A DNA stretch of 64,000 nucleotides, taken from assembly GCA_964575925.1 (NCBI GenBank), contig CAZNTR010000002.1, positions 6,624 through 70,623 on the forward strand, written 5' to 3'. Position numbers and translations under genes: made by a program. The notes under the pieces are model-generated. The model was not told where the DNA came from. It searched no databases and saw nothing but the letters and a program-made list of their open reading frames with translations. Below, in pieces: positions 1 to 37,271 of the stretch (position 1 is the first letter of the stretch; each line of letters opens with the position of its first letter). The DNA comes from an uncultured Chitinophagales bacterium (lineage in GTDB: Bacteria; Bacteroidota; Rhodothermia; Balneolales; M1805).

Positions 1-315
1 GCTATGGTTCAGGGTCAAAACAGTGCCGTAGATTTGGGCCAAATTGAATTGGCTAAATTTATTAATCCAGGTGGATTGCGCGCACTTGGTGATAATTTAT
101 TTGAAGCAACCGATTCTTCAGGCGATCCTTTTTTAGGGCTTCCTGGCGGAGAAGGATTTGGTGGAGTTATGCAAGGATTTACTGAAAACTCAAACGTTGA
201 TATTGTAAATGAAATGGTTCGTTTAATTGTAGCTCAAAGAGCGTATGAAACCAACTCAAAAATGGTTACAACTGCTGAAGAAATGATGGGAATAACAAAC
301 AGTATCAAACGTTAA
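1..315 (+). CDS. flgG: Flagellar distal rod protein FlgG, C-terminal fragment (5' end lies outside the window)
   Basis: Frame is open to the window edge. C-terminal rod/hook signature VAQRAYETNSKMVTTAEEMMG. Followed by flgA-flgH-flgI. Confidence 0.85.
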   Translation, partial: AMVQGQNSAVDLGQIELAKFINPGGLRALGDNLFEATDSSGDPFLGLPGGEGFGGVMQGFTENSNVDIVNEMVRLIVAQRAYETNSKMVTTAEEMMGITNSIKR

Positions 316-3666: not shown

Positions 3667-3683
3667 CGAAAGAACAATCAGCA

Positions 3684-6012: not shown

Positions 6013-6447
6013 ATGGCTTTAACACAAGAAATGCTATCTATTCAATCAAAATTATTTGGCTCATTTGATGTTGATGAACGAACAGTAATGAAATTTTCAG
6101 AGGGGATTCCTGGCTTAGAAACAATAAAGGATTATGCCATGGTTACTTTTGAGGAATACGCACCAATTGTATGGATGATTTCAACAGATGGGGTGTATCA
6201 TTTTCCTTTAGTGTTGTATAAAACAATAGATTTTAATGATTTTGATAGAGAATCGCAGCAATTTTATAAAATTCAGTTAGATAAGTATTTAGCAAAAAAT
6301 GAGAACAAGAATGCCTATATCATTCTCAAACTAGATAGTTCTGTTCAAACTGTAAGTTTACGATCTCCAATAGTTATAGACCCGGTAAAACAAACAGGAA
6401 AACAACTAATTTTGGAATCAATTTCTCAGGAAAGTGGAGATTTCTAA
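6013..6447 (+). CDS. fliW: Flagellar assembly factor FliW
   Basis: 144 aa. FSEGIPGLE and ILKLD...VSLRSPIVID pattern. Directly upstream of csrA in the flgK-flgL-fliW-csrA order known from Bacillus. Confidence 0.8.
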   Translation: MALTQEMLSIQSKLFGSFDVDERTVMKFSEGIPGLETIKDYAMVTFEEYAPIVWMISTDGVYHFPLVLYKTIDFNDFDRESQQFYKIQLDKYLAKNENKNAYIILKLDSSVQTVSLRSPIVIDPVKQTGKQLILESISQESGDF

Positions 6448-6702
6448 ATGTTGGTCTTGTCACGTAAGGAGAATGAAAAAATCCGAATTGGGTCTGATAT
6501 AACGATAACTATATATGAAGTTAAAGGTAATCAAGTAAAAATTGGAATTGATGCCCCTAAAGAAATTGGCATTTTGAGGGGTGAATTATATGAGCAAGTT
6601 AAACAATCGAATCAGAATAGTCTTCTATCTGAAAAGCCTGAACTTGGTCAGATTCCATTATTCATAAAAATGAAAAATAAAGTTGATAAAACAGATGGAT
6701 GA
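6448..6702 (+). CDS. csrA: Carbon storage/translational regulator CsrA (long C-terminal tail type)
   Basis: [51 protein letters not shown] is an unmistakable CsrA core. The ATG abuts the fliW stop (TAAATG). Confidence 0.95.
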
Positions 6703-7210: not shown

Positions 7211-7237
7211 CAACACGTTCTGGTAAAAATCAAATTC

Positions 7238-8467: not shown

Positions 8468-8584
8468 TAATTATTTTTGAATTTATTGAACTATTTCCGT
8501 TATTTACTGTTCTAATTCCCTGCAGATAGCTAAATTACGTCGAATTTGTTTCGGCAGACTAACAAACATGGGCAAATTAAACTT

Positions 8585-8956
8585 ATGAGTGATCTTTTTA
8601 TATTAATAGTAGATGATTCTCCTACAATGAGAAGAATTATTAAAAACACCCTTGAACGACTCGGGCATCGAGAGTCTGTTGAAGCGAGCAACGGAAAAGA
8701 AGCTCTTCAGCAATTAGAAGAGCATCCAATAAATTTTATTATAACAGATTGGAATATGCCTGAAATGAATGGTCTTGAGTTTGTTACAGAACTGAGAACA
8801 ACGCCAGAATATGCGAAAATACCAGTTCTTATGATTACAACTAGAGGAATGAAAGATGATGTATTACAAGCTGTTCAAGCAGGTGTAAACAACTACGTTG
8901 TTAAGCCATTTACACCAGAAACACTCGAACAAAAAATGAATAAACTTCTTGCTTAA
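8585..8956 (+). CDS. cheY: Chemotaxis response regulator CheY
   Basis: Single REC domain: ILIVDDSPTMRRI, ITDWNMPEMNGLE, VVKPF. I prefer ATG 8585 to the TTG at 8546. Confidence 0.9.
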   Translation: MSDLFILIVDDSPTMRRIIKNTLERLGHRESVEASNGKEALQQLEEHPINFIITDWNMPEMNGLEFVTELRTTPEYAKIPVLMITTRGMKDDVLQAVQAGVNNYVVKPFTPETLEQKMNKLLA

Positions 8957-8967
8957 GCTATTGCTAT

Positions 8968-9663
8968 GTGAGTTATCAAATGGAATCAAGTATGATAAAA
9001 AATGACGATTACGGTGAAATTATAACCCGAATAAAGCAAATAAAAAGTCTTTTTGCTTTTGGTGAAGGAATTTTACCCTTTTTAGAAGAATTGTTTGTCT
9101 TTCTCCGTGAAGTTTCGCCACTTTTAAATGATGTTTCTGAATCAATTATGAATACAACTGGTTTAATGCCAGATGCTGCTAGTGAATTAGATACAGCCGT
9201 TGCAGAAACAACGGATGCAACCTATCAAATAATGAATCGAGTTGAGCAAATCATGTCTCATGTTGATACCTTAGAAATGGGTGCAAACCCAGAAGATATG
9301 GAAGCGGCTATGATGTTAGGCGAAATAAGAAATGATGCAATCGCAATTATGACTGCGTTGCAATTTCATGATATTGTTTCACAGAAACTGGTTCATGTAA
9401 GAAAAGTAATGGCAGAAATTCAGATTAAGATGCTTCAATTATTCACAAGAGTGTATGAATTACATATTGAAGACGAGATTAAAGAGAATATTCTATCAAC
9501 ATTTGGAGTTAATATTGAAAAATTCCACAATATGATGGAAAAGAAAATTAATGTTGATTCAAGAATGACAGCTGATTCTCCTGCACCTGAGTCACCTATA
9601 AAAGTTCAGGCACCACAAACATCAGCGTTTAATCAAAATGATATCGATGATTTGTTTGGGTAA
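8968..9663 (+). CDS. CheZ-like CheY-P phosphatase
   Basis: LQFHDIVSQKL matches the CheZ catalytic F-x-D-x3-Q spacing (E. coli FQDLTGQ). The C-terminal end NQNDIDDLFG resembles the CheZ CheY-binding peptide (..VDDLLDSLGF). Adjacent to cheY. GTG start; an alternative ATG is at 8980. Confidence 0.6.
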   Translation: MSYQMESSMIKNDDYGEIITRIKQIKSLFAFGEGILPFLEELFVFLREVSPLLNDVSESIMNTTGLMPDAASELDTAVAETTDATYQIMNRVEQIMSHVDTLEMGANPEDMEAAMMLGEIRNDAIAIMTALQFHDIVSQKLVHVRKVMAEIQIKMLQLFTRVYELHIEDEIKENILSTFGVNIEKFHNMMEKKINVDSRMTADSPAPESPIKVQAPQTSAFNQNDIDDLFG

Positions 9664-9687
9664 AACGAACTAACATTGATTTAAAAA

Positions 9688-9730
9688 TAAAAAGCCAGCA
9701 AATGTTGATCGTATTTGGTGGCTTTTTTTA
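9688..9730. terminator. Bidirectional rho-independent terminator between convergent cheZ-like and cheB
   Basis: AAAAAGCCAGCAAAT ... ATTTGGTGGCTTTTTTT. 11-bp stem with one mismatch, flanked by an A-run and a T-run. Confidence 0.65.
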
Positions 9731-9745
9731 TAAGGATTATGAACG

Positions 9746-10816
9746 CTACGAATACCTCTCGTGTAATGCTCTTACGGCATCAATTATAGCAGAAGATATC
9801 TCATTAATATGTAAAATTTGATCAACAGCCCCTAATTTTATGGCCTCTTTAGGCATTCCATAAACAACACAACTATCTTCATTTTGTGCGATATTATGTG
9901 CTCCTTTGTCATGCATCTCTTTCATGCCAATTGAGCCATCTCCGCCCATACCCGTTAACATTACACCAATTGTATTATTGCCAGCAACCGAAGCAACAGA
10001 GTGAAATAATACATCAACAGAAGGTCTATGATGATGAACCATGGGACCTTCTTTAACCTGAACAAAATAGTCTGAACCACTTTTTTTCAAAAGCATGTGA
10101 TAATTTCCAGGCGCAATTAAAACTCTTCCCATTAAAACACGATCACCGTCTTCCGCCTCTTTAACGTCTAAGGGTACTAGTGAATTTAAGCGTTCAGCAA
10201 ATGCAGTTGTGAATTTAGGAGGCATGTGCTGTACTATAACAATTCCTGGGGAATCAGCAGGGAGACCCATTAAGACTTGTTTTAAAGCTTCAGTACCCCC
10301 TGTGGAAGCTCCCATTGCAATAATTTTATCTGTAGTATGCTTTAGGCCACCTAGATTTAAAGGAGTATTAATCTCAGGAGGTTTTTGAGGAATAACAGGT
10401 GGTTCAAAAAGATGTTTGTTTTTCATGTTGGCTTTTGCTGCAGCTCTAATAACTCGAGCTAATTGCAAGGTTAAATCACCAACTGAATAGGAACCACCAG
10501 GTTTACAAAGAACTTCTACCGCCCCAGATTCTAAGGCTACCATTGCAAGATCACTACCTTGTTTTGTAAGTGAGCTAATTATGATTACAGGTTTAGGGAA
10601 GAATCGCATTATCTTTTTTAAGAATGTAATTCCATCCATACGAGGCATTTCCACATCAAGCGTAATTACGTCGGGGTTCAGACGTACAATCTTGTCTCGG
10701 GCAACATAAGGGTCTATTGCGGAGCCTACAACCTGAATATCCGGGTACTTATTTAGATCTTCAGTTAATTTTTTTCTAACTATTGCGGAGTCGTCAACGA
10801 CAAATACCCGGATCAT
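9746..10816 (-). CDS. cheB: Chemotaxis methylesterase/deamidase CheB (REC + CheB_methylest)
   Basis: N-terminal REC (IRVFVVDDSAIVRK, LDVEMPRMDG). Catalytic domain GASTGGTEAL, HMPPKFT, GMGGDG. Confidence 0.92.
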   Translation of the reverse strand: MIRVFVVDDSAIVRKKLTEDLNKYPDIQVVGSAIDPYVARDKIVRLNPDVITLDVEMPRMDGITFLKKIMRFFPKPVIIISSLTKQGSDLAMVALESGAVEVLCKPGGSYSVGDLTLQLARVIRAAAKANMKNKHLFEPPVIPQKPPEINTPLNLGGLKHTTDKIIAMGASTGGTEALKQVLMGLPADSPGIVIVQHMPPKFTTAFAERLNSLVPLDVKEAEDGDRVLMGRVLIAPGNYHMLLKKSGSDYFVQVKEGPMVHHHRPSVDVLFHSVASVAGNNTIGVMLTGMGGDGSIGMKEMHDKGAHNIAQNEDSCVVYGMPKEAIKLGAVDQILHINEISSAIIDAVRALHERYS

Positions 10817-10818
10817 AA

Positions 10819-11280
10819 TTATTTTCGATTATATGGTGAAATAGTCATTAGTCGCCCTTCGGCAACAAAGTAGATAGTCCAATGTTCGTCTGTATTATCA
10901 GATTCAGTAATTGAATTTGGGTCTAGAATTTCAGGAATCGATAGGTTGCAAGTTGCATTTGGATCTACTCTAACCAGATAATTTCCACCAATTATGTTTG
11001 CCGTTTCACAAGCCATAGACTCAATATGTTCCTGCATTAACTCATCTTGAGTTATGCCCATAAAGTTCATGGCCATTTCGGATAATAATTGAGGATCTAT
11101 AGTGAAGTGAAGGTAAAAATCGGTATTAAAGTGAATTCCAACGTGAATAGAATTACGTGAAATTTCACCGATTGAAACTTTTTTGCCATCATCATCTAAG
11201 TCTGGAAAAATGAAAAACATATCCGTCATTATCTCATCAATGACTGTAATAATAATTTCTTTGTTATTTAAATTAAGCAT
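10819..11280 (-). CDS. CheX/CheC-family CheY-P phosphatase-like protein
   Basis: 153 aa. Single S-x3-E-x2-N motif (SMACETAN) with a Pro about 21 residues later, close to the CheC/CheX/FliY consensus D/S-x3-E-x2-N-x22-P. Lies inside the che operon. Confidence 0.55.
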   Translation of the reverse strand: MLNLNNKEIIITVIDEIMTDMFFIFPDLDDDGKKVSIGEISRNSIHVGIHFNTDFYLHFTIDPQLLSEMAMNFMGITQDELMQEHIESMACETANIIGGNYLVRVDPNATCNLSIPEILDPNSITESDNTDEHWTIYFVAEGRLMTISPYNRK

Positions 11281-13726: not shown

Positions 13727-13747
13727 AAGATAATTCCTGATTTACTA

Positions 13748-16078
13748 TTAGTCTTTATACGATCTTCCTGATTTAGGTAACAAAGTTGGAACATCAATGA
13801 TTAAGCCTACTGTTCCATCCGATAATATTGCACCTCCAGCTAAGCCTGCAAGATTACTTAAACTTTCACCAAGGGATTTAATAACAATTTCTTGTTTGTC
13901 TAACATTTTATCCACTAATAAAGCTGCTTCTTGTTTATCACTTTCAACAATGATAATGAGACCTTCCCATGGTTTTTCAACTGCAGTATTAATTCCAAAA
14001 TATTTCCCAACACGAATAAGAGGCATAACTTTATTGCGAATAAATACGGTTTCGCCTTTTCCAGCAATTTTATTGAGTTGCTCTTTTTTAACAACAAGAG
14101 ATTCTTTAATGCTAATTGTAGGTAAAATATATTTTTCAGAACCAATTTCGATGATAACTCCATCAATAATGGCTAGAGTTAGGGGTAAGCGCAGTGAAAA
14201 CGTTGTGCCTTTACCTAGTTTCGTTTGAATGTCGATATTCCCACGAAGACTAGTAATCGCTCGTTTAACCACATCCATTCCTACACCACGGCCAGATACA
14301 TCAGTGACAACTTCACTTGTCGAAAATCCTGAGGCAAAGATGAAGTTTAGAATTTCTTCTTCTGAATGCTTCACTCCTAATTGTGTAATACCTTTTGAAA
14401 TGGCTTTAGATAGAATTTTTGATGAGTCTATGCCATTTCCATCATCAGTAACATCAATTACTACCATACCACCTTTGTAGAAGGCATTTAAGGTTATGGT
14501 ACCTGTCTCATTTTTACCTCTTGATTTTCGAACTTGAGGGCTTTCAATTCCATGGTCACAATTGTTTCGAATCATGTGCACTAGTGGGTCATACAATTCG
14601 TCAACCATATTTCGGTCAATTTCAGTATCTTCACCGAATACTTCTAGTACAATTTTTTTCCCAGATTTTCGAGCTAAATCGCGAACAATCCGGTGCATTT
14701 TCTGGAAGGTATCTTTAATGGGCACCATGCGCAATGACATGGATAAATCTTGAAGATTGTTTGTAATACGTTTGAGTTGCCCAACATCTTGCTGTAATCG
14801 TTTATCAATACTTGCTTTTACAACATTATTCTGAACAACCATGTTTTGAGTTACAACAAGTTCGCCAACAAGATCAATAAGGGAATCCATTTTTAAGGTA
14901 CTTACACGCAAAGTAGAGTCTTTAACTCCACCCATTGCTCTTGTACCTAATATTTTGTCTGAATCCTCTAATTTTGCAGTATTTTTTTTGAATGCAGATG
15001 TCTCGTTTTGATTAGACTTTGAAAAGGTGTGGTCTAGTTTTGGCTTAATAGGTTGTGAAAGTGAACCCTTATTTATATTTGGTGAAACGTTTTCACTATT
15101 ATTCTTTTGAGATGGAGTCTTCTCGTGAGAATCAAGCGTGCCAGAACGTGCTCTTTCCACAAGTTCTGCAAAACTGTTTAAATCGACAGTGTGTCCTTTA
15201 TAATTTCCGGTTTCAATTGCATCAAGCAAAGCAGAAATCATGCTTTTTAAGGCGTCAATCCCTTTAAAAATGGCATCAGCTAGCGATGCACTGTATGCTA
15301 ATTTCCCTTTCCTAACCTCATCAAGTACATCCTCGTACATGTGTGAAAAATTATTGATGTCAGTTAGGTTTAAAAAGCCTGCTACGCCTTTAATAGTATG
15401 GAAGGGTCTGAATACGGAATCAATGATTGTTAAGTCAGTTGGAGAAGATTCCCAATCTATAAGACCATTTTCTATCATTTGAATATGTTCAGCTGTCTCA
15501 TCAATAAAGCCTTGAAGCAATTCTTCGTCATCTTTTAAAGTTTGATTGATAAGTTTGAAATCATCAAAAGTTTTAAAATAATGATGACTAACAACTGCTT
15601 TAACTACTTCTTGTTGTTTTTCTTGAACTGGTTTCTCTTTAGGAGTTTCTTCAGAAATATGTGTAGGCTTTTTAATAGGATTAGAGGGGGCATTTTTCAA
15701 CTTAACAACTGGTGCATCTAATTCAATGGTATGAGATTCGACAATGTCTTCATGAGTTGCATCTTCATTGTATTCGTTCTGTTTTTTTGCAAATTCTACA
15801 TCAGTAACATATTCAGATTCTGAGTGAGCTATTTGGAGTTGCTCAATTGCGGCATTTAATTCATTTATACCAACAGAATTTGACTCATATTCATCTAAAA
15901 TAAGTCGTTCAACAACAGACCTTACTTGAAGAATGTATTCCTGAATAGGTTGTTCATGCAACTCATCCAGAAGTTTTAATATTTCTCCAAGAGCCTGAAT
16001 ATCATCGGCTTCAAGTAAAACAATTTTACTTGCTAATGAGTTGAGTATGTCGGATGGATTTTTACTGATGGTCTGCAT
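13748..16078 (-). CDS. cheA: Chemotaxis histidine kinase CheA
   Basis: P1 Hpt FRPFHTIKGVAGFL. HATPase blocks HMIRNNCDHGIE, DDGNGID, GRGVGMDVV. C-terminal CheW-like domain. About 180 aa of unassigned sequence precede P1. Confidence 0.95.
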   Translation of the reverse strand: MQTISKNPSDILNSLASKIVLLEADDIQALGEILKLLDELHEQPIQEYILQVRSVVERLILDEYESNSVGINELNAAIEQLQIAHSESEYVTDVEFAKKQNEYNEDATHEDIVESHTIELDAPVVKLKNAPSNPIKKPTHISEETPKEKPVQEKQQEVVKAVVSHHYFKTFDDFKLINQTLKDDEELLQGFIDETAEHIQMIENGLIDWESSPTDLTIIDSVFRPFHTIKGVAGFLNLTDINNFSHMYEDVLDEVRKGKLAYSASLADAIFKGIDALKSMISALLDAIETGNYKGHTVDLNSFAELVERARSGTLDSHEKTPSQKNNSENVSPNINKGSLSQPIKPKLDHTFSKSNQNETSAFKKNTAKLEDSDKILGTRAMGGVKDSTLRVSTLKMDSLIDLVGELVVTQNMVVQNNVVKASIDKRLQQDVGQLKRITNNLQDLSMSLRMVPIKDTFQKMHRIVRDLARKSGKKIVLEVFGEDTEIDRNMVDELYDPLVHMIRNNCDHGIESPQVRKSRGKNETGTITLNAFYKGGMVVIDVTDDGNGIDSSKILSKAISKGITQLGVKHSEEEILNFIFASGFSTSEVVTDVSGRGVGMDVVKRAITSLRGNIDIQTKLGKGTTFSLRLPLTLAIIDGVIIEIGSEKYILPTISIKESLVVKKEQLNKIAGKGETVFIRNKVMPLIRVGKYFGINTAVEKPWEGLIIIVESDKQEAALLVDKMLDKQEIVIKSLGESLSNLAGLAGGAILSDGTVGLIIDVPTLLPKSGRSYKD

Positions 16079-17583: not shown

Positions 17584-18048
17584 TTACAGATTTGAAAGGA
17601 TTTTTGCGAGTCTTGACGCAACTTCTGTAATAATCTCTGGGTTTTCAGCTAAATTCTGTTTTAATTTGTCTAAATCTACTGGATAAACGGGAATATAAGT
17701 AGATCCTAAAGCGTCAGACTCTAATTCAATGATATCATGTTGAATGGCTACAGCAAGTTTTTTTATTGCGCTTTCTGAAGTATAATACCCTTGTTCTGCT
17801 TTTGTACGAACAGAACGTACTCTATCTAAAGATTGGTCATCTATTTTTTGATAAATTTGTTTCGCAAAGGACAAATCATCGGAGGCAGAGGCGGAAGAAA
17901 TAGAGACTTTGTCTGTTGATTTTTGATCTACTCTATTGTTAGAATACATTTCCGAACGTTTTCCATAACCATCATTTGATGGAGTTTTTATTCTGGAACT
18001 AGAATTTCGGTCAATTCGTTGTGAAGAGGTAAGTGTTCTGATATCCAT
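17584..18048 (-). CDS. FlgM-like anti-sigma-28 factor (putative)
   Basis: 154 aa, Ser-rich and probably disordered N-terminus. LDRVRSVRTKAEQGYYTSESAIKKLAVAI resembles the FlgM C-terminal sigma-28-binding helix pattern (..I..G.Y.v....iA..l). Confidence 0.5.
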   Translation of the reverse strand: MDIRTLTSSQRIDRNSSSRIKTPSNDGYGKRSEMYSNNRVDQKSTDKVSISSASASDDLSFAKQIYQKIDDQSLDRVRSVRTKAEQGYYTSESAIKKLAVAIQHDIIELESDALGSTYIPVYPVDLDKLKQNLAENPEIITEVASRLAKILSNL

Positions 18049-20445: not shown

Positions 20446-20772
20446 TTAAACGGCAGTGTTTAAGGCTGATTTGTTGCCTTTAACAACTGAGTCGTACCAT
20501 GCATCGCGGACGCCGATAAGTAAATCTCGTACTTCTTCGAATTTATGATCACGAGTTACATGTTGGCAATACTCGTATAAATTAAAGAAGTTTTCAGCAA
20601 GTTCGTAATCATGATTTAAGGAACGCATCAATAATGAGAGAATTTTAATCAATCGAACCTGATCTTTACGATAGGTAGCTTGAATAGCCATATCATAAAG
20701 GATCCCAATTAATTCTGTTGGAGTAGCATTTTTAATTTGCTGAATTTGATACGTATTTAATGCTGAATTCAT
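20446..20772 (-). CDS. fliS: Flagellin export chaperone FliS
   Basis: 108 aa. NTYQIQQIKNATPTELIGILYDMAIQ is a FliS-type N-terminal block. Downstream of the flagellin genes. Confidence 0.85.
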   Translation of the reverse strand: MNSALNTYQIQQIKNATPTELIGILYDMAIQATYRKDQVRLIKILSLLMRSLNHDYELAENFFNLYEYCQHVTRDHKFEEVRDLLIGVRDAWYDSVVKGNKSALNTAV

Positions 20773-20854
20773 AGGACAAAGAGGAGATTAGGAAGTTAAA
20801 GAAATGGAGGGAATACCTATAAAGATACTCCCATCCCATTTCAGATGTTGAGGA

Positions 20855-21709
20855 TTACCTACTTAGGAAACCTAAAACAGCCTGAGGTGCGGCATTTGCT
20901 TGAGCTAATGAAGCGATAGCAGTTTGTTGCAAGATTTGCAATTTAACGGCTTCACTTTGAGTTTTAGCAAAATCTGCATCACGAATTCTACTGCGAGCAG
21001 AAGAATTACTGTTTACCGCTTGAGTAAGGATTTCCTCGCGGATGGAAAGCTGTGTTTGGTAAATACCTAATTGATTTACAGCACCAGCAAGGAGATTGAT
21101 AGCAACATCGATACTAATCATAGCTGATTGAGCAGCTAAGAATGAAGTAACATCAACACCAGCAATACCTAATCCAGAAGCTGTAAAACTAGCTACACCA
21201 TTTGCATTTCCAGAAGTTAATTGAACATTGATAGTATCAGCTGTTCTTTCACCAACTTGAAAAGTTGCATCGTATGTTCCAAGAAGAATATTTCTACCTT
21301 GAAAAACGGTTTGAGTAACTAAGGAGTCTAATTCACTCACTAGGCTATCAACCTGTGCTTGAATAAAATCACGTTCGTCAACACCGTAAGTATCGTTTGC
21401 AGCTTGAGTAGCTTTAGTTTTTAACGTTGTTAGAATATCTAAAACAGAATTCATACTAGCTTCTGCAATATCCAAAACTGATTTTGCGTCACCTGTGTTG
21501 GCAAGAGCTTGCTCTAAACCAGCAATACGTGAACTCAATTTTGCAGAGATTGAAAAACCTGCAGCATCGTCTTCTGCTTTATTAATACGGAATCCAGTTG
21601 ATAATTGTAACTGAGTAATTCCGAGTTTTTTGTTAATCCTGTCTAGAGAAAATCTAGATTCTAGGGATTGAACATTCGTATTAATACGATTAAAATCGCC
21701 GAATGCCAT
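20855..21709 (-). CDS. fliC: Flagellin, copy 3 (284 aa)
   Basis: N-terminal RINTNVQSLESR...GFRINKAEDDAAGFSISAKL. C-terminal IRDADFAKTQSEAVKLQILQQTAIASLAQANAAPQAVLGFLSR. Confidence 0.93.
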   Translation of the reverse strand: MAFGDFNRINTNVQSLESRFSLDRINKKLGITQLQLSTGFRINKAEDDAAGFSISAKLSSRIAGLEQALANTGDAKSVLDIAEASMNSVLDILTTLKTKATQAANDTYGVDERDFIQAQVDSLVSELDSLVTQTVFQGRNILLGTYDATFQVGERTADTINVQLTSGNANGVASFTASGLGIAGVDVTSFLAAQSAMISIDVAINLLAGAVNQLGIYQTQLSIREEILTQAVNSNSSARSRIRDADFAKTQSEAVKLQILQQTAIASLAQANAAPQAVLGFLSR

Positions 21710-21740
21710 AATATAGCTCCTTCTATTTTATTTAAGAATA

Positions 21741-21760
21741 AGACCCCTTCCTTGGGATCT
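21741..21760 (-). promoter_or_regulatory. Leader hairpin presenting GGA in its loop (candidate CsrA site and/or attenuator) upstream of flagellin copy 3
   Basis: Minus-strand RNA AGAUCCC-AAGGAA-GGGGUCU: 7-bp stem including one U-G pair, hexaloop containing GGA. The second GGA sits in the SD AGAAGGAGC (21716-21724), 28 nt downstream. Confidence 0.5.
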
Positions 21761-21773
21761 TTTTGTTGTTTGC

Positions 21774-22622
21774 TTAAGCAGAGATAAATCCAAGAACAGC
21801 TTGTGGAGCAGCATTAGCTTGCGCTAATGAAGCAATAGCGGTTTGTTGAAGGATTTGAAGTTTTAACACCTCACTCTGCTCTTTAGCAAAGTCTGCATCG
21901 CGGATTCTGCTTCGCGCTGAGGAATTTGAATTAATAGCTTGGGTCAGAATTTCTTCCCTAATGGAAAGTTGAGTCTGATAAATACCAAGATTATTAACGG
22001 CTCCTGCAATATAATCTATTGCACTATCGATACTTACCATTGCTAATTGTGCACTTGCAAATGAACTAACGTCTAAAGCATCGATTTCCAAACCTGAAGC
22101 AGTAAAACCTGCGTCTGCTCCTCCAGAAGTTAATTGAACATTAATGACATCTGCACCGCGTTCACCAACTTGGAAGGTTGCATTGTAAGTTCCACCTAAT
22201 AATGATCGACCTTGATATACTGTTGTGGTTACTAATGAGTTTAGCTCATTTACTAAACTATCAATTTGATCTTGAATAAATTGACGCTCATCAACACCGT
22301 AAGTGTCATTGGCCGCTTGTGTTGCTTTTGTTTTCAAGGTTGTTAAAATATCAAGCATCGAATTTAAACTCGATTCTGCGATATCTAATACAGATTTTGC
22401 ATCTCCAGTATTCGATAAACCTTGCTCTAGTCCAGCAATACGAGAACTTAATTTTGCCGATATTGAAAACCCTGCTGCATCGTCTTCCGCACGATTAATG
22501 CGAAAACCAGTAGAGAGTCTCAATTGGGTTATACCAAGCTCTTTATTGATTTTGTCCAGAGAAAATCTAGATTCCAATGTTTGTACATTGGTATTAATCC
22601 TGTTAAAATCTCCGAAAGCCAT
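21774..22622 (-). CDS. fliC: Flagellin, copy 2 (282 aa)
   Basis: Same conserved termini as copies 1 and 3. Divergent central segment. Confidence 0.93.
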   Translation of the reverse strand: MAFGDFNRINTNVQTLESRFSLDKINKELGITQLRLSTGFRINRAEDDAAGFSISAKLSSRIAGLEQGLSNTGDAKSVLDIAESSLNSMLDILTTLKTKATQAANDTYGVDERQFIQDQIDSLVNELNSLVTTTVYQGRSLLGGTYNATFQVGERGADVINVQLTSGGADAGFTASGLEIDALDVSSFASAQLAMVSIDSAIDYIAGAVNNLGIYQTQLSIREEILTQAINSNSSARSRIRDADFAKEQSEVLKLQILQQTAIASLAQANAAPQAVLGFISA

Positions 22623-22657
22623 AAAAGCTCCTTCTTTTTGATTGTTTCTGTTAGAAT

Positions 22658-22673
22658 GCCCCGTCCCTGAGGC
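22658..22673 (-). promoter_or_regulatory. Leader hairpin presenting GGA in its loop (candidate CsrA site) upstream of flagellin copy 2
   Basis: Minus-strand RNA GCCUC-AGGGAC-GGGGC. The SD AGAAGGAGC (22627-22635) lies 32 nt downstream. The hairpin sits just downstream of the sigma-28-like -10 box. Confidence 0.5.
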
Positions 22674-22681
22674 AATCTATG

Positions 22682-22709
22682 TTATCGAACAATCTGAAAA
22701 TTCTTTAAA
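22682..22709 (-). promoter_or_regulatory. Sigma-28 (FliA)-type promoter for flagellin copy 2
   Basis: Minus strand reads TTTAAAGAATTTTCAGATTGTTCGATAAC: TAAA, 16 nt, CGATAA. Consensus is TAAA-N15-GCCGATAA, i.e. 17 nt between TAAA and CGATAA. Confidence 0.6.
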
Positions 22710-22802
22710 TCGGAAATTTGTTTTCACAAAAATTAAGTCAAAGAACAAAGGAGACTTTTAGAGTCTTTGGAGAATTGGGACGGGTTGGGACTAACAGAGA
22801 AT

Positions 22803-22841
22803 CAAAAAGCCCTAAGCCGTTTAACCTATTCAGGCTTAAGG
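22803..22841 (-). terminator. Rho-independent terminator after flagellin copy 1
   Basis: Minus-strand RNA CCUUAAGCC-(14-nt loop)-GGCUUAGGG followed by CUUUUUGAU. 9-bp stem with one wobble pair. Confidence 0.65.
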
Positions 22842-22861
22842 TTTAAAACGAGGGTTAATTT

Positions 22862-23707
22862 TTATTGTAAGAATCCAAGAACTGCCTGTGGTGCTGAGTT
22901 AGCTTGAGTTAGTGAAGCGATAGCCGTTTGTTGTAAAATTTGCAACTTAACGGCTTCACTTTGTTCTTTAGCAAAATCTGCATCTCGAATTCTGCTTCTT
23001 GCTGAAGAGTTAGAATTAATAGCTTGAGTAAGAATTTCTTCACGAATTGAAAGCTGAGTTTGATAAATACCAAGATTATTAACCATGCTAGCTACTCCAT
23101 TTATAGCTCCATCAACATTTGACATAGCTATTTGTGAGTTTGCATTTGAGTCCACAAGTAGAGCGTTAACACCAAGACCAGTTGAATCGAAACCAGTTCC
23201 TGAAGTACCTGAGAAAATTTGAACGTTGATTACATCAGCTGTTCTTTCACCAACTTGGAATGTTGCATCGTAAGTACCTGCAAGTAAAGAACGACCTTGG
23301 TAAACAGTTTGACTGATTAATGAATCTAATTCGTTAATTAAGCTATTTACTTGACTTTGAATAAAGTTGCGTTCATCAACACCGTAGGTATCGTTCGCAG
23401 CTTGAGTTGCTTTCGTTTTAAGAGTAGTTAAAATATCTAGGATGCTATTTAAGCTAGATTCTGCAATGTCTAAAACTGATTTTGCATCACCTGTATTTGC
23501 CAAAGCTTGCTCTAAACCTGAAATTCTAGAACTTAATTTTGCAGCAATTGAAAATCCAGCAGCATCATCTTCTGCTTTATTAATTCTAAAACCTGTTGAA
23601 AGTTTTAATTGAGTATTACCAAGTCTTTTGTTGATTTTATCCAATGAAAATCTTGACTCAAGAGATTGTACATTAGTGTTAATCCGGTTAAAATCTGCGA
23701 ATGCCAT
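22862..23707 (-). CDS. fliC: Flagellin, copy 1 (281 aa)
   Basis: MAFADFNRINTNVQSLESR...GFRINKAEDDAAGFSIAAKL and C-terminal QANSAPQAVLGFLQ. Confidence 0.93.
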   Translation of the reverse strand: MAFADFNRINTNVQSLESRFSLDKINKRLGNTQLKLSTGFRINKAEDDAAGFSIAAKLSSRISGLEQALANTGDAKSVLDIAESSLNSILDILTTLKTKATQAANDTYGVDERNFIQSQVNSLINELDSLISQTVYQGRSLLAGTYDATFQVGERTADVINVQIFSGTSGTGFDSTGLGVNALLVDSNANSQIAMSNVDGAINGVASMVNNLGIYQTQLSIREEILTQAINSNSSARSRIRDADFAKEQSEAVKLQILQQTAIASLTQANSAPQAVLGFLQ

Positions 23708-23751
23708 AATGTGAGTGTTTAGAGTGTTTGGTTTTTTGTATTATGACTTAC

Positions 23752-23780
23752 TTATCGTATTGTGGGAAAGCAGACTTTAA
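23752..23780 (-). promoter_or_regulatory. Sigma-28 (FliA)-type promoter for flagellin copy 1
   Basis: Minus strand reads TTAAAGTCTGCTTTCCCACAATACGATAAG: TAAA, 18 nt, CGATAA. The -10 box lies about 45 nt upstream of the ATG. Confidence 0.6.
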
Positions 23781-23873: not shown

Positions 23874-25118
23874 TTAGTTAATTAGTAAATCATTATAATA
23901 TTCAGTTAAAACAGGATCTCTTTTTTGATAATATGCTCTTAGTGCTTTAATAGCTTCTATATTATTATAATTAATATTTAATACGTCTTTAAACCAAATC
24001 ATAGCAGAATCTGGTTTGCCAATGTTAAGATACATTTCTGCTAAATTGAAACGAGCGTTCTCATTATTGGTGTCTAATTCACAACAGGTCTTCATTAATT
24101 GAACTGCTTTCTTCTTTTCTCTATTTGCCCAATACCAAACGGCAAGATTATTTAAGGTTGGACTATGATTTGGATTAGTTTCGATTAGAAGTTCAAACAG
24201 TTTAATAGCAATAGGGTATTGTTTTTTTCGGTAATAAGAAGTGGCTTTCAAGTAAAGAATGTCTGACTCTAAAGGAAGTTCTTCTAATAAAATGTTACAT
24301 TTTTCAATACATTCATCTAGTTTGCCGTGAGTTTGTAAATGGGAACAGAAGGTAATTTGAGTTAAGAAAGACTTAACTTTGTCAAAAGACCAGTTTTTTG
24401 TGAACTGCGAACGAGACAAAGCATATTTGAATTTGATTGCTGTGTTCTCAAGAAATTTTGCTTCTTGATTTGAGTGTTCTATGCTGTCATTGCGCTTTAG
24501 ATATAGACCTAATAGTTGATTTATTTTTTTAAACTCAAAAAATTCTGAAAGTTTCACCCAAAATTCAAAATCGCCTGAAGTAATAAAATCAGAGTCGAAA
24601 AAGCCTACCTTTTCATGTACTGATCTCCTCCACATAGGCATAGGACCTATATAACAAAGACCATTGATTAACGTCTCACGATCATGATCATTCAGTTTAA
24701 ACATTCCATCAGATGAGTTAATTTCAAACGTTTCATTCTCATTTTTTGTAATGAGTACATCAGGATATACAAGGGCATATTCTGTATGTTCTTCTAGATA
24801 ACTTGAAAGAATCTCATATGCATCTTTTCGTAATCGGTCGTCTGTGTTTGCGTTTGTAATATATTTACCGGAAGCTAGCTCAATGCCACGATTCCATGCC
24901 CCATAAACTGTTTCACGTTCGGTTCGCAAATAGTAAATATTAGAATGATAGTGTTGATATGCTTTAACAATTTCAGCTTCATTTTGAGTTGAACCACTAT
25001 CTATCACAATAATTTCAAGTTTTTTCCCAATTGTTTGAGATAAAAGATCGTCGAGTCGACCTTTTATGAAACGTTCGGCGTTATATGTAGAGACAATTGC
25101 TGAAACTAGGTATTCCAT
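23874..25118 (-). CDS. Family-2 glycosyltransferase fused to C-terminal TPR repeats (second copy of this architecture)
   Basis: VSAIVSTYNAERFIKGRLDDLLSQT...EIIVIDSGSTQNEAEIV...NANTDDR (GT2). C-terminal TPR-like LYLKATSYYRKKQYPIAIKLFELLIETNPNH... Confidence 0.75.
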   Translation of the reverse strand: MEYLVSAIVSTYNAERFIKGRLDDLLSQTIGKKLEIIVIDSGSTQNEAEIVKAYQHYHSNIYYLRTERETVYGAWNRGIELASGKYITNANTDDRLRKDAYEILSSYLEEHTEYALVYPDVLITKNENETFEINSSDGMFKLNDHDRETLINGLCYIGPMPMWRRSVHEKVGFFDSDFITSGDFEFWVKLSEFFEFKKINQLLGLYLKRNDSIEHSNQEAKFLENTAIKFKYALSRSQFTKNWSFDKVKSFLTQITFCSHLQTHGKLDECIEKCNILLEELPLESDILYLKATSYYRKKQYPIAIKLFELLIETNPNHSPTLNNLAVWYWANREKKKAVQLMKTCCELDTNNENARFNLAEMYLNIGKPDSAMIWFKDVLNINYNNIEAIKALRAYYQKRDPVLTEYYNDLLIN

Positions 25119-25142
25119 AAGTAAACTAACTTCTGCGAAGAT

Positions 25143-28100
25143 TTATTTTTGTTTTAAGGAAAGTTTGAAATGTTGAATTTTATCAATCATTAACTGTGCG
25201 TTTTGCCTGTAAGATGTGGTCAGAAAGTGAGATAAAAGATTAATTGCCTCATCAAATTGATGATTTACAACTAGTAATTTAGTTTCTTCTGAACCCTTTT
25301 TCCAGACTTCATGTTCATTAAAAGTAAAAAAGTCTTTTGGTTTTTCTATGTGCCAATCAATATCCCAAATGTCTAAATTCTTGAAATATGCTACACCAAA
25401 TTGTTCAAACCATTCTTGAATTTGAGCTGTTCTCCAAGTTTCTTTTACGGAAAGTTTTACGGGTTTAAACCAATCTGAATACGCTTCAAACCAAAGATAG
25501 GGGCTGTTTTGAAGAGATAGGCCAGTTTCATTTTTTGAAGGGTAATAGTTAATATTTATTTCAGTTGTACTTTTTTTAGGTTGTCTTATGAGTTCTAACA
25601 TTCTGTACCAAGCTTGTTTTACTAATAAATTATGCCAATTTACAAACTGAAAGTGCATAATTCCGTAGTCATAAGTTTTAAAAAAATAATAAGTTCCATC
25701 TAAGTTTGCTGGAGTTCTTCCGGTGTGAATAAATTCTGATTCGTAATAACATTCACCATCATCACAGAAAATAAATGCTTTCATATTCCATGTCCAAACA
25801 GAGTTGTCGAAGCGAAATTTTGTGCAAGATCTCCATAATTGAATCCAAGTAAAAACGAATTTGTCGCCCGGATTCATACATTTGATAGCATGTTTTAGCG
25901 AGTCATTATCTAAGCAGTTAGCGGTAAACAACTCATCAGCGTCTAAAACAATAAAATGTGTGCCACCATGATTTCTACCAGCTTTTAATAAAAGATTACG
26001 ATCTCCAGGTTCATCTCTAAACCAGTTATCTTTTTCAATTATTTCTAGAATGGAACACTCGTTTGCCAAGCTTTTTATGATGTTCACGGTTTCATCATCA
26101 GAATGGTCGTCTAAAACGATAATACCATCTGTTATTAATGCAAGAGCTCGTAAACAATTTTCAATATGAAATTCTTCGTTTTTAACTGGAACTAAGCCAA
26201 TAATTTTTGAGTCTTTAGCCGATTTATATTTGAAATCTTCGATACGAACATGTTGTTGTTTTGTGTTTAGAATGTTCTTAATGGATGTACAATCGTCAAT
26301 GTCTTTTCCTTCACCTCTATTTGTTTTCATGGCATGCAATGCTTGAAGACTAATGCATTTAACTCCATTCAAATAAAAATGAAATTCTGGATTTTGAATG
26401 ATTTCATCTTTTGGCCAAGCATGATATTTAAGTTGAGATTCGATAACATGGCTATTAATGCCATTAATTGGGATTTCCCAAGGTTTATTGCCTACATGTA
26501 GAAAATCTAAATCGCCACATTCACGAATTCCATAAGCGGAAAGGCTAGAACTTCCATCAATACAAACTTGATTAAGTGGAACTTGAACGGACTTTAGCCA
26601 TTTCGCAAAATGATAAAATAAGGTGTAAAAGACCGGGAAGTTTTGAGCGGTAGATTTTTCAAGAAAATGCCTTGAATTTGCATTTAAAAGTGAGCCACAG
26701 ATTACAGCTGTTTCAGCATGTGAATCATTAATATGAACGGAGTGATTCTCGACCTTATAAGCAGCTCTTATTTTCTCTTTAATAGATTTAAGTAGTTCAA
26801 GTTTATCCGATTGAATAAGATAGACTCGAACATTAGCAGAACCAGAAAAACAATTTGAAGCTTTAAATTCAGCTCCAGCAAAACCATTTTGGTATGAGCC
26901 TAACCATGGTTCATCTGCATAAATTTGACGGATGAGATTTAAGCCAAACTTGCCAGAAGGAGTAATCGATTTGTAATAGATAACAGGGACGTTTGAGCGT
27001 ATAAAGTGATCAATCTCTGAGTCTAAGCCTTCTGCTCGTGGAAAGAGTGTAATAGTGCGAGTTGTTGAATCTAGTTCCGCAAACAAACTAGCTCCAAAGT
27101 CTAGCCATTTCTCTTCAAGGTTTTTATAAGTAAAAAAAGAGTAGTTGAAATTAGTTTGAGAATTCGGCATTACAACGGTTAGTACAGGAATAGAATTCGC
27201 AAAAGCAGCGGCCACTCTATGCGACCCATCTAAAACAACTCCTAAATTTGAAACGGGAATTATAGATTCAGCAGGATTAAACCCTAACGTTTCAAATGAT
27301 CTCAAAATCTCATGAAAAGCTTCCTGAAAAGATTCGAAATTAGATTTTCCACTTTCATCACCTTCAATAAAATTATTAAAAGCTTGCAAATGAGCTTTGT
27401 ATGCTAGAATTGCAGAAGTGGTTAAATCGCCCTTATAAAAATGTTGAGCATAATTAATTTTGAATGGTAAATCGAAGCGTTCAGGTTTTAAAAGTTGGCT
27501 ACTTTTTGTCCGTTTTAATTGTAAGGTTTCGGAAACAGAATGAATTTTTAAAAAATGAGGATTAATTAAATGTTGAATTTCAGAAAGAGAAACCGTTTCG
27601 GTCGGCACGAGAAATAAATCTTGACCATTGTCGTCATATAAACTAAAGGAAACTGACCGAGCAAATTCGATTATTTCTTCTCGAAGGGTTCCGTACTCGA
27701 TGATGATTAATTCTGGTTTAAAACGATTAAAATCAAGTGTTTTGAGAACTTCTAAATCATAACCTTCAGCATCGATTGAGAGGATATCTATATGAGAAAA
27801 TCCTGCTGATTCTACCAATTCGTTAAGTGTAGTAGTTTCAACATTTTCGATGTGCCATTCGGGTTTGTAATTATCCCAACGCTCTTTTTCCACTTCCAAA
27901 ACACTAGCTACATCTGAACCCCATTCTTGAATTTTTGGATATGATGAAACATGAAGTGGAATGGGACCTTTTTCTGGGCTAATGGCTTTATTTACTAAAA
28001 TAGCATTTGGGAAAGCTGAATAAGATTTTTTTAAGCGTTGGAAATTATCGTGAACAGGTTCAACATGAATGGATTTCCACCCAAATTTTGTAACTAATCT

Positions 28101-28955
28101 TCGGACATTACTATAATGCACCCCATCAAAAGCACCGATTTCAATACAGGTTTTTTCTTTTGGGCGAAAGGTGACGAGATATTTTTCAATTTCATCATCT
28201 TGATCTAACTGAGCAAACCAACCTTGTGCATGTTTTTGTAGTTCACGTGCGTACCAAAATTGAGGTTTAGTTTGTTGAATTAAGGCACATTTTTCCATTG
28301 TTAATGCGCTATTACCCGTTTCGTAAGCGGCTTTAGCAGTGAACCAATTCCAAACCCAGTTAGCAGAGTCATCATTAGAAAAATAAGTCAAAAGAGGTAG
28401 CGCCTCTGAAAATTGCTCAGATAAAAATAAAAGTAATGCTTTAATTGATAATTGCGAAGTTGATGAAAGAAAATCTTTAGTTTCATCAGACTCCATTAGT
28501 GCAGCATGTAACCATGGGTAAGAAGAAGCTTTATAAGCAGATTCCAACAAAATGTTTGTGTTCGAAGGTATCGAAAAAATAGCGTTTACTAGACCTGGGT
28601 AAACTTTAGTAGCTGCAATGAATGTTGCAAATAAATACCCTTTATCAAAGTGCAAATCAGCTATTGAAATAGTTAGTTTAGAGTCTGATTTTAAAAGATT
28701 TAATAGTGTAACACAAAGGTTGTATATCCAAGCAGTCTCAGCTAGCGGAATTTGATTTTTTAGTTCTGTTTCGGCACGTTGAAATTGTTTAGTTTGTAGG
28801 AAGAAAAGAATAAAAGCATACGATTTAAAGACAGAATCTGAAAGAGAATGTAAATGGCTAATATCCGTTTTTTCTAATTGAGAAATGATGTTCCATAATT
28901 CATAGAGTTTTTTTTCAGAACAAACTAATTCCCAATCGGTAAGTGAATTTTTCAT
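25143..28955 (-). CDS. 1270-aa multidomain protein: helical/TPR-like N-terminus, FkbM-type methyltransferase, about 400 aa of unassigned sequence, C-terminal GT2 glycosyltransferase
   Basis: aa ~260-425: CIEIGAFDGVHYSN...IDILSIDAEGYDLEVL...LIIIEYG (FkbM family pattern). aa ~570-585: VLDGSHRVAAA. aa ~800-820: CIDGSSS...GDLDFLH. aa ~915-1010: IGLVPVKNEEFHIENCLRAL...IIVLDDHSDDET...FIVLDADE (GT2). Confidence 0.8.
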   Translation of the reverse strand: MKNSLTDWELVCSEKKLYELWNIISQLEKTDISHLHSLSDSVFKSYAFILFFLQTKQFQRAETELKNQIPLAETAWIYNLCVTLLNLLKSDSKLTISIADLHFDKGYLFATFIAATKVYPGLVNAIFSIPSNTNILLESAYKASSYPWLHAALMESDETKDFLSSTSQLSIKALLLFLSEQFSEALPLLTYFSNDDSANWVWNWFTAKAAYETGNSALTMEKCALIQQTKPQFWYARELQKHAQGWFAQLDQDDEIEKYLVTFRPKEKTCIEIGAFDGVHYSNVRRLVTKFGWKSIHVEPVHDNFQRLKKSYSAFPNAILVNKAISPEKGPIPLHVSSYPKIQEWGSDVASVLEVEKERWDNYKPEWHIENVETTTLNELVESAGFSHIDILSIDAEGYDLEVLKTLDFNRFKPELIIIEYGTLREEIIEFARSVSFSLYDDNGQDLFLVPTETVSLSEIQHLINPHFLKIHSVSETLQLKRTKSSQLLKPERFDLPFKINYAQHFYKGDLTTSAILAYKAHLQAFNNFIEGDESGKSNFESFQEAFHEILRSFETLGFNPAESIIPVSNLGVVLDGSHRVAAAFANSIPVLTVVMPNSQTNFNYSFFTYKNLEEKWLDFGASLFAELDSTTRTITLFPRAEGLDSEIDHFIRSNVPVIYYKSITPSGKFGLNLIRQIYADEPWLGSYQNGFAGAEFKASNCFSGSANVRVYLIQSDKLELLKSIKEKIRAAYKVENHSVHINDSHAETAVICGSLLNANSRHFLEKSTAQNFPVFYTLFYHFAKWLKSVQVPLNQVCIDGSSSLSAYGIRECGDLDFLHVGNKPWEIPINGINSHVIESQLKYHAWPKDEIIQNPEFHFYLNGVKCISLQALHAMKTNRGEGKDIDDCTSIKNILNTKQQHVRIEDFKYKSAKDSKIIGLVPVKNEEFHIENCLRALALITDGIIVLDDHSDDETVNIIKSLANECSILEIIEKDNWFRDEPGDRNLLLKAGRNHGGTHFIVLDADELFTANCLDNDSLKHAIKCMNPGDKFVFTWIQLWRSCTKFRFDNSVWTWNMKAFIFCDDGECYYESEFIHTGRTPANLDGTYYFFKTYDYGIMHFQFVNWHNLLVKQAWYRMLELIRQPKKSTTEININYYPSKNETGLSLQNSPYLWFEAYSDWFKPVKLSVKETWRTAQIQEWFEQFGVAYFKNLDIWDIDWHIEKPKDFFTFNEHEVWKKGSEETKLLVVNHQFDEAINLLSHFLTTSYRQNAQLMIDKIQHFKLSLKQK

Positions 28956-36659: not shown

Positions 36660-37271
36660 TTATTCACAAACTAGTTCTCTAGTAGGATCAATAGGCTTAG
36701 CATTAGCCGGTTTAGAGCCTTTAAGAGAATGAATGTAACTTGAAACTAGCTGAAGTTCATCTGTATTCAACTGTTTGCCACCGCCGTAAGCTGGCATACC
36801 TTTAGCTGGAAACCCAGTTTGTACACTAACCATGATCGATTTAGGGTCGCAACCATTAATCCAATACTCATCGGTAAGGTTAGGCCCAACTAGACCTTTG
36901 CCATTCGCCCCATGACAAACATTACAAATGGAATTGTAAATAGCTTTTCCTTTTTCAACGGATTCAACATCTGTTAGAAAAGTTAATTCTATCCAATCGT
37001 CTGTATTAACTGTTGGGGATGTTGGTCTTTGAGAAACCACTCCAGCCATTTCTGCCTCATATTCACCTTTTGAACTAGATCCCCAGCCTAAAACGTGATA
37101 GAAAAGTAAGTATAGAACTGCAAAAAGAATACAGAACCAAAATCCGAATACCCACCAACCAGGCATGTGGTTGTCTAATTCGCGGATGCCATCATAATTA
37201 TGATCGAGCAATACGTCTTTTTCATCATCGAAAATATCGGCCTGCTGTTTTTTATTTACATTTTCAGACAT
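36660..37271 (-). CDS. ccoP: cbb3 oxidase subunit III CcoP, monoheme form
   Basis: N-terminal YDGIRELDNHMPGWWV (FixP N-terminal signature). Only one CxxCH motif (CNVCH). 203 aa. Confidence 0.85.
   Translation of the reverse strand: MSENVNKKQQADIFDDEKDVLLDHNYDGIRELDNHMPGWWVFGFWFCILFAVLYLLFYHVLGWGSSSKGEYEAEMAGVVSQRPTSPTVNTDDWIELTFLTDVESVEKGKAIYNSICNVCHGANGKGLVGPNLTDEYWINGCDPKSIMVSVQTGFPAKGMPAYGGGKQLNTDELQLVSSYIHSLKGSKPANAKPIDPTRELVCE

Follow-up and report, generated by a model that had tools for sequence, protein, structure and literature searches.

Putative two-site CsrA operators on two of three tandem flagellin genes in a Bacteroidota-like bacterium

Described systems in which CsrA and its antagonist FliW control flagellin synthesis reportedly include the Hag-FliW-CsrA partner switch acting on hag in Bacillus subtilis, attributed to Yakhnin in 2007 and Mukherjee in 2011, and the control of flaA and flaB in Campylobacter jejuni, said to come from Radomska et al. 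in 2016. The locus considered here is an array of three tandem flagellin genes (copies 1 to 3), which lies together with fliW and csrA in a stretch of 64,000 nucleotides (nt) of contig CAZNTR010000002.1 (hereafter, the window); the nearest genome records carry the labels Balneolales or "Bacteroidota bacterium", or are unclassified metagenome-assembled genomes. With a probability put at roughly 0.7, flagellins 2 and 3 are predicted to be under two-site CsrA operators with release by FliW, and copy 1 to stand outside this loop. An earlier note on the same DNA had proposed such a split and regarded the arrangement as undescribed.

In B. subtilis, CsrA occludes the ribosome-binding region of hag, while FliW is titrated by flagellin and becomes free upon flagellin export (Oshiro 2019, PMC6529632). 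In C. jejuni, the flaA leader contains two ANGGA hexaloops, the second of which lies over the ribosome-binding site (RBS), in stems with compensatory changes; its dissociation constant (Kd) for CsrA is ~50 nM, and flaA is de-repressed by GGA mutations or by csrA deletion (Dugar et al. 2016, PMC4894983). The flaB leader binds about seven-fold or more weakly (Kd >350 nM), the flaB level is unchanged in a csrA deletion, and CsrA binding between operon cistrons, giving discoordinate regulation, was also reported for this species (PMC4894983). In Leptospira biflexa, flaB3 binds CsrA and is the sole gene clearly and restorably upregulated in a csrA deletion by RNA sequencing (RNA-seq), and among the other three flaB genes flaB2 is also up by reverse transcription quantitative PCR (PMC8668096). 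CsrA sites have been predicted close to the flaB1 and flaB2 Shine-Dalgarno (SD) sequences in Treponema denticola (PMC9481697).

Thus, paralog-selective CsrA control is known in C. jejuni and L. biflexa and predicted in T. denticola, and the earlier claim of an undescribed arrangement does not hold. The control scheme is known in kind from Campylobacter, Bacillus and spirochetes and is not a new mechanism. What is new here is the lineage, the sharply binary split within a tandem array, the intercistronic operator and the SD-poor background; no paper on FliW-CsrA in Bacteroidota-like bacteria was found in the literature searched.

Flagellin leaders in the window and in related loci

All three flagellin genes are intact in the list of open reading frames (ORFs) and lie in tandem on the minus strand: copy 1 at 22862..23707 (281 aa), copy 2 at 21774..22622 (282 aa) and copy 3 at 20855..21709 (284 aa), each with Flagellin_N and Flagellin_C above the Pfam cut-offs. 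Copy 1 shares 80% identity with copy 2 and likewise with copy 3; near-identical termini, including the C-termini, are common to the three proteins, and substitutions are concentrated in alignment columns ~164-210. On re-reading of the sequence and ORFs, the coordinates given in the earlier note were all correct, as was its description of paralogs of 281, 282 and 284 aa that diverge centrally. For comparison, 23 related loci (designated L001 and onward) with arrays of one to six flagellin genes were collected, 11 by scans of genome and metagenome contigs and 12 by protein search followed by contig look-ups.

The leaders of copies 2 and 3 each carry two candidate CsrA sites. The first is a hairpin (SL1) presenting an A-N-G-G-A-N hexaloop closed by a C-G pair and predicted to be a high-affinity site. 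On copy 2 it lies at 22657..22674 of the minus strand (UGCCUC-AGGGAC-GGGGCA; fold z -3.1, with motif scan and covariation in agreement) and begins 7 nt past the -10 box, placing it at or near the predicted 5′ end of the mRNA; on copy 3 it is intercistronic, at 21740..21761 of the same strand (AAGAUCCC-AAGGAA-GGGGUCUU; fold z -2.9). Both hairpins fold better than almost all shuffles. The second site, AAGGAG, lies over the ribosome-binding region, within a weak hexaloop hairpin (aaaag-AAGGAG-cuuuu; minus strand, 22623..22638) located 4 nt 5′ of the AUG of copy 2, and within auag-AAGGAG-cuau (minus strand, 21713..21726) located 6 nt 5′ of the AUG of copy 3. The motif GAAGGAGC occurs only twice in the 64-kb window, both times before copies 2 and 3.

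The gap between the two sites is 32 nt on copy 2 and 28 nt on copy 3, and start-to-start distances in the relatives are ~21-46 nt, all within the range that one CsrA dimer can bridge. That range is reportedly about 10-63 nt, a figure attributed to Mercante et al. in 2009. The optimum inter-site spacing is given as 18 nt, and an A-N-G-G-A-N hexaloop with C-G closing is the high-affinity CANGGANG form cited for both C. jejuni flaA hexaloops (PMC4894983). The two hairpins postulated in the earlier note are therefore supported by folding, and its combination of a GGA in a hairpin loop with a GGA at the RBS, 28-32 nt apart, matches the dual-site architecture of CsrA operators; its placement of AGAAGGAGC six nt from the AUG in both leaders is right for copy 3 and is corrected to 4 nt for copy 2. 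An Rfam search of the whole 64-kb window at gathering thresholds returned no matches, so that the leaders fall in no known RNA family.

Sigma-28-like boxes precede copy 1 (minus strand, 23752..23780; TTAAAG-N17-CGATAA, by direct reading and pattern match) and copy 2 (minus strand, 22682..22709; TTAAAG-N15-CGATAA, by pattern match), such that the promoter-bearing genes of the tandem array all have boxes of this type. As the earlier note had stated, the 64-nt spacer 5′ of copy 3 contains no TTAAAG...CGATAA box, and none of the three genes has an apparent sigma-54-type box upstream. In the window alone, the sigma-28 pattern (TAAA-N15-GCCGATAA-like) has 3 matches against 1.2 expected, which is not significant, the copy 1 box being excluded from these three by a spacer 2 nt longer than the pattern searched. 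The boxes claimed previously for copies 1 and 2 are thus present, and their assignment as promoters rests on conservation rather than on statistics within the window. The copy 1 box (CTAAAGTC..ACGATAA) stands at the same distance in L001, L002, L008, L009, L012 and L013, that of copy 2 is conserved in L008, L009, L012, L001 and L002, and in the relatives most promoter-bearing flagellin genes have a similar box in this position. No fliA gene was identified among that part of the window ORFs scanned against Pfam. The array would comprise two late (sigma-28-type) transcription units, copy 1 alone and copy 2 with copy 3, where both the co-transcription of copies 2 and 3 and the transcript 5′ ends are predictions.

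The copy 1 leader (minus strand, 23708..23751) is A/C-rich (50% A, 25% C, 5% G) and unstructured, with a minimum free energy of 0 kcal/mol. It has no GGA and no SD, as reported in the earlier note, and this is true of the leader and yet unremarkable in this genome. An SD is near-absent from the 30 nt 5′ of every sizeable window ORF; among 48 non-flagellin ORFs, a 4-nt SD core was found in 9 and a 5-nt core in 3, and GGA is missing from the 44 upstream nt of 30 of the 46 ATG-initiated window genes. A lack of both elements was accordingly rejected as a speciality of copy 1. Since the window genes are SD-poor, the copy 1 leader is the default, and it is AGAAGGAGC/AAGGAG on copies 2 and 3 that constitutes the anomaly, so that the earlier emphasis on copy 1 was misplaced. 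Beyond flagellins 2 and 3, strong SD-like cores were seen only before a FixP-like cbb3 oxidase gene (AAGGAGG) and a fused CcoN-CcoO gene (CAGGAG); stretches that exemplify this in the window are 36660-37271 and 37513-39654.

Three classes of leader recur across the related loci. Type A, comprising a sigma-28-like box and an unstructured A/C-rich leader with zero GGA (10 of 10 such leaders), is found on window copy 1, on the first genes of L001, L002, L008, L009, L010, L012, L013 and L015, and on the third gene of L016. Type B combines a sigma-28-like box with a hairpin at the predicted 5′ end, bearing the A-N-G-G-A-N hexaloop, and a GGA element before the AUG; it includes window copy 2, the second genes of L001, L002, L008, L009 and L012, the single gene of L011, and the first genes of L004, L005 and L016-L019. 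The first gene of L003 has GGAs in a loop and at the RBS, in a form other than the type B hexaloop. Type C is a 60-85-nt spacer directly after a flagellin stop codon, lacking a promoter box and carrying a hairpin like that of type B together with AGAAGGAGCU; it precedes window copy 3, the third genes of L001, L002, L008, L009 and L012, the sole complete flagellin gene of L014, and the second genes of L010, L013 and L015.

The AGAAGGAGCU element is invariant in the copy-2-type and copy-3-type leaders of the nearer relatives (window, L001, L002, L008-L010, L012-L015), and more distant dual-site leaders have other GGA elements at the second site, e.g., AAAAAGGAGUUUGUU or GGAAGGA. The split between leaders with and without GGA, whose conservation in relatives the earlier note had proposed to check, is kept in 13 of 13 loci that have two or more flagellin genes, one or more of them with a dual-site leader (window, L001, L002, L008, L009, L010, L012, L013, L015 and L016-L019). 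A type C gene comes directly after a type A gene in L010 and L015, and a single transcript would therefore carry one CsrA-blind and one CsrA-controlled flagellin.

Selection on the hairpin was assessed with 20 distinct hairpins aligned in register over 7 stem pairs. Of the stem cells, 98.6% are paired, a percentage inflated by the choice of this set through a hairpin scan. Double-sided changes occur in 7 of 7 stem pairs among the 20 distinct leaders, and the covariation score of 0.956, compared to 0.31 in shuffles, was reached by 0 of 500 shuffles. Three further lines of evidence are independent of the hairpin-scan choice. First, pairing is 38-54% in slid controls, where the partner was moved by 1-3 columns. 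Second, the A.GGA of the loop is invariant across the 20 leaders and the C-G closing pair is present in 19 of them, with the same loop borne by wholly different stems (AGAUCCC/GGGGUCU in the window, GAGCUCC/GGAGCUC in L001 and GGAAUCUC/GAGAUUCC in L015). Third, in a scan for C-ANGGAN-G hexaloops on stems of at least 6 bp across the window and the 23 loci (~277 kb, or 553 kb on both strands), 22 of 23 hairpins lie within 80 nt 5′ of a flagellin AUG, a zone that amounts to 0.85% of the 553 kb searched. Within the window, the motif scan found the copy 2 and copy 3 hairpins to be the sole G+C-rich ones of the motif. Because the stem covaries, the loop is fixed and the hairpins are confined to flagellin leaders, the dual-site leader design is, as judged by sequence comparison, under selection.

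A separate ANGGAN hexaloop on a 7-bp A-U-rich stem (uuuuaag-AGGGAA-cuuaaaa) was observed in an intergenic region of the plus strand at 51787-51806, ~210 nt 5′ of a gene for a CdaA-like diadenylate cyclase (52016-52831). Within the coding regions, the type C genes of the window, L008, L009, L012, L013, L001 and L002 are nearly identical in nucleotide sequence over their first 60 nt, which contain no GGA, and the type B genes of the window group have three GGAs in this stretch.

The arrays themselves turn over: L010 retains a decayed third flagellin copy with stops and frameshifts (5908-6328), L013 has only a remnant of the copy-2 3′ end in a 547-nt gap (4437-4983), and L005 has six flagellin copies (4551-11207). 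In a neighbor-joining protein tree, the copy-3-type genes of the nearer relatives group together, L010 excepted, and types A and B are not cleanly separated between the window group and the L001/L002 group. Assignment of copy orthology by protein tree was rejected, as leader type tracks gene order better than it tracks protein similarity, a mismatch possibly produced by gene conversion.

Proposed control and rival explanations

The regulators needed for such control are encoded in the same window, in agreement with the earlier note. On the plus strand, fliW (6013..6447; 144 aa) follows flgN-flgK-flgL, scores 49.5 bits against Pfam FliW and matches the FliW chain in PDB entry 5dmb, a FliW-CsrA complex; csrA (6448..6702; 84 aa) scores 87.8 bits against Pfam CsrA and matches PDB entries 1t3o and 5dmb_D. 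The cluster flgN-flgK-flgL-fliW-csrA spans 3160-6702, such that fliW and csrA are adjacent inside a flagellar gene cluster, with the csrA ATG abutting the fliW stop codon (TAA). Among solved structures, CsrA is best matched by that of B. subtilis (1t3o); the window protein retains R44 and the N-terminal MLVLSRK, and in structure-database matches both proteins are closest to the FliW-type proteins of B. subtilis and Geobacillus. No CsrB/RsmZ-type sponge RNA, which a partner switch of this type would not require, was matched by Rfam within the 64-kb window.

Other upstream GGAs were observed in this region. The 44 nt before the csrA ATG (within 6400-6447) contain three, including a GGAG at -12; these, together with the abutting stop and start codons, suggest translational coupling of csrA to fliW, CsrA autoregulation, or both. 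At least two GGAs in the 44 upstream nt are found in 7 window genes, six of them motility genes (flgN, flgL, csrA, cheW and flagellins 2 and 3), with examples of such GGA-rich stretches at 3116-3159, 5032-5075 and 13727-13770, which is a hint that CsrA controls further genes, as it does in C. jejuni.

Binding by CsrA, repression of translation and antagonism by FliW are predicted to operate at copies 2 and 3 as follows. The stable hairpin would present A-N-G-G-A-N in a C-G-closed hexaloop to CsrA as the first site, and AAGGAG over the ribosome-binding region, 28-32 nt downstream, would provide the second; one CsrA dimer would bridge both, blocking 30S binding and repressing translation. FliW, unless held by unexported flagellin, would release CsrA from the mRNA, and synthesis of flagellins 2 and 3 would in this way track export capacity, like that of B. 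subtilis hag and C. jejuni flaA. The copy 1 leader would offer CsrA no site, and this flagellin would be made once its promoter fires, outside the feedback loop. In a partner switch of this type, FliW would bind the C-terminal region of flagellin and, allosterically, CsrA. Because their termini are almost identical, all three flagellins can probably titrate FliW, in which case copy 1 would act on the loop while itself escaping its control.

Several points weigh against this proposal, in addition to the inflated pairing percentage. The second hairpin, at AAGGAG, is weak, with 2-5 A-U-rich pairs and no covariation, and a slightly more downstream transcription start would clip the stem of the copy 2 SL1. 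The role of AAGGAG as an SD for the ribosomes of this lineage is putative, and low-affinity CsrA binding may occur at a lone GGA early in the copy 1 coding sequence. The more distant loci L020-L023 show the pattern degraded to a single GGA or none, and the design is therefore a feature of a clade and not universal.

The status of AAGGAG as an SD underlies an alternative that is tentative and on balance unlikely, in which the ribosomes of this lineage are SD-blind, as in Bacteroidia, the conserved AAGGAG is a pure CsrA operator or is read only by an SD-competent subset of ribosomes, and copy 1 acts as a CsrA-blind "pilot" flagellin. Such a subset could, by analogy, resemble the bS21-free ribosomes of Flavobacterium. 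Initiation independent of SD sequences is well documented for class Bacteroidia, e.g., Flavobacterium johnsoniae (PMC7797042, PMC9976891); Rhodothermia, Balneolales and Ignavibacteria are unmentioned in the first of these papers (PMC7797042), and the 64-kb window contains neither a 16S rRNA gene nor a bS21 gene. If this alternative were true, the cytoplasmic level of copy 1 would set the amount of free FliW, making translation of flagellins 2 and 3 contingent on the export of copy 1; CsrA repression would be uncoupled from SD competition, and sensing and structural roles would fall to different flagellins.

The lone GGA of copy 1 bears on a second, unlikely alternative, namely that control is quantitative and not binary, with all three flagellins answering to CsrA; for copy 1 the route would be weak sites or sites outside the leader, or an indirect one by way of FliW titration and competition among mRNAs, as for the low-affinity flagellar targets of C. 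jejuni. This GGA lies at +22..24 of the copy 1 coding sequence and is shared by L008, L009 and L013; it occupies a synonymous site, however, and is absent from the orthologs in L012, L001 and L002, and a conserved hidden CsrA site in the early coding region was rejected on these grounds. CsrA generally recognizes a lone GGA outside any structure poorly, and the copy 1 leader, with its 5% G, offers neither a hairpin nor an RBS-proximal GGA. On the other side, low-affinity leaders of C. jejuni such as flaB do bind CsrA in vitro and respond once antagonists are removed (PMC4894983).

A third possibility, judged very unlikely, is that CsrA is irrelevant to these leaders, the copy 2 hairpin being a 5′ stabiliser, that of copy 3 acting as a leaky terminator, an attenuator or a site of processing, and AAGGAG being simply a strong SD. 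The location of the copy 2 hairpin at the predicted transcript 5′ end is consistent with this, as is the moderately U-rich AUUCUUAAAU that follows the copy 3 hairpin in the window, and strong SDs, being rare in the genome, could mark genes that need exceptional translation. However, a stabiliser or terminator needs a stem and not a fixed loop, whereas here the stems change and the A.GGA and closing C-G pair stay. The terminator scan was negative for the copy 3 hairpin, and the tail after hairpins of this kind never reaches 5 U in 8 nt in nine lineages (at most 4), with 0-1 U in L012 and L015, whose tails count as U-free; efficient termination would moreover silence copy 3, because this gene has no promoter of its own. 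The terminator or attenuator reading was accordingly rejected, and with it the suggestion in the earlier note that the copy 3 hairpin attenuates read-through from copy 2. Least probable of all is that the ANGGAN loops are read by another RNA-binding protein or by a small RNA with a UCC-containing seed, for although no Rfam family matches the region or the rest of the window, the motif, closing pair, second site at the RBS and spacing all fit the known CsrA/RsmE target form (PMC4894983), and a FliW-type csrA lies in the same motility region.

Under the preferred two-site CsrA control of flagellins 2 and 3, the FliW-CsrA flagellin checkpoint would extend to flagellated Bacteroidota-like bacteria, as represented by relatives labelled Balneolales or Bacteroidota, and the C-ANGGAN-G hairpin (22 of 23) would mark the CsrA-controlled flagellin genes of the clade almost perfectly and serve as an annotation aid. 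The array would represent a natural experiment, kept across many genomes, in which near-identical flagellins are provided with a default leader, a promoter-proximal operator and an intercistronic operator. The locus also offers a test case for whether CsrA repression needs SD competition, and for SD-blindness outside class Bacteroidia.

Surrounding genes

Copy 1 is followed on the minus strand by a terminator-like hairpin at 22801..22841, recognized from sequence and folding, with a 9-bp stem (CCUUAAGCC/GGCUUAGGG) and then CUUUUUGAUU; its 14-nt loop is outside the 3-8 nt covered by the terminator scan. A strong terminator-like hairpin 3′ of copy 3 (minus strand, 20801..20842; -22.7 kcal/mol, z -3.5) was positive in that scan. 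Downstream of the array, fliS (minus strand, 20446..20772; Pfam), encoding a flagellin chaperone, is the first gene of a cluster that continues with fliD, flaG, a FliT-like ORF and a flgM-like ORF, followed by a sigma-54 activator and a che operon. The flgM-like ORF (minus strand, 17584-18048; 154 aa) has no Pfam match, and it is probably an anti-sigma-28 factor, since its positional counterparts in L017, L018 and L019 match FlgM weakly.

Directly 5′ of the flagellins, large GT2-TPR and FkbM-methyltransferase/GT2 ORFs occupy 23874-28955 of the minus strand, and a second GT2-TPR gene follows csrA on the plus strand (7238-8467). Similar genes stand beside the arrays of relatives, and all of these are probably flagellin glycosylation genes. 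Elsewhere in the window, an IS200/Y1-transposase-like ORF (minus strand, 42481-43029) adjoins a cluster of cbb3 oxidase and P-type ATPase genes, and the region 54000-58000 has a G+C content of 26-28%, compared to ~34% elsewhere, with a strongly positive GC skew.

Comparison with described systems

The described system of C. jejuni flaA and flaB resembles the present locus in its adjacent ANGGA sites, with the second over the RBS, in the compensatory changes of the stems, in FliW as antagonist (predicted here), in high-affinity CsrA sites (predicted here) on some paralogs and not on all, and in CsrA sites between cistrons, as predicted for copy 3. In contrast, flaB of C. jejuni is sigma-54-dependent, whereas two genes here have sigma-28-like boxes and no sigma-54-type box is apparent; the uncontrolled paralog here is devoid of any leader GGA, whereas flaB retains a weak site; and one operator here is intercistronic, with a site spacing of 28-32 nt compared to 21 nt. 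The host here is also of an SD-poor Bacteroidota-like lineage, in which the operators are predicted from sequence.

The hag system of B. subtilis shares the gene order flgK-flgL-fliW-csrA, the CsrA protein to which that of the window is most similar, and, as predicted here, a sigma-28/sigma-D-dependent flagellin mRNA with CsrA at the ribosome-binding region and titration of FliW by flagellin. It differs in having a single flagellin in the loop, as opposed to three paralogs with split control, and the window genome, unlike that of B. subtilis, makes no general use of SD sequences. The spirochetes L. biflexa and T. denticola likewise have CsrA sites, predicted ones in the latter, on a subset of flagellin paralogs, with a GGA hexaloop just before the start codon; the genes involved, however, are for the most part scattered, with sites further from the canonical form and effects measured chiefly on mRNA, whereas the genes here form a tandem array with a sharply binary, conserved split.

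With respect to translation initiation, the window genes resemble those of class Bacteroidia in that most, like copy 1, combine an A-rich leader with the absence of an SD, and strong SDs are limited to a few special genes. Sequestration of the anti-SD has been shown for class Bacteroidia only, whereas the relatives of the present genome are labelled Balneolales or Bacteroidota.

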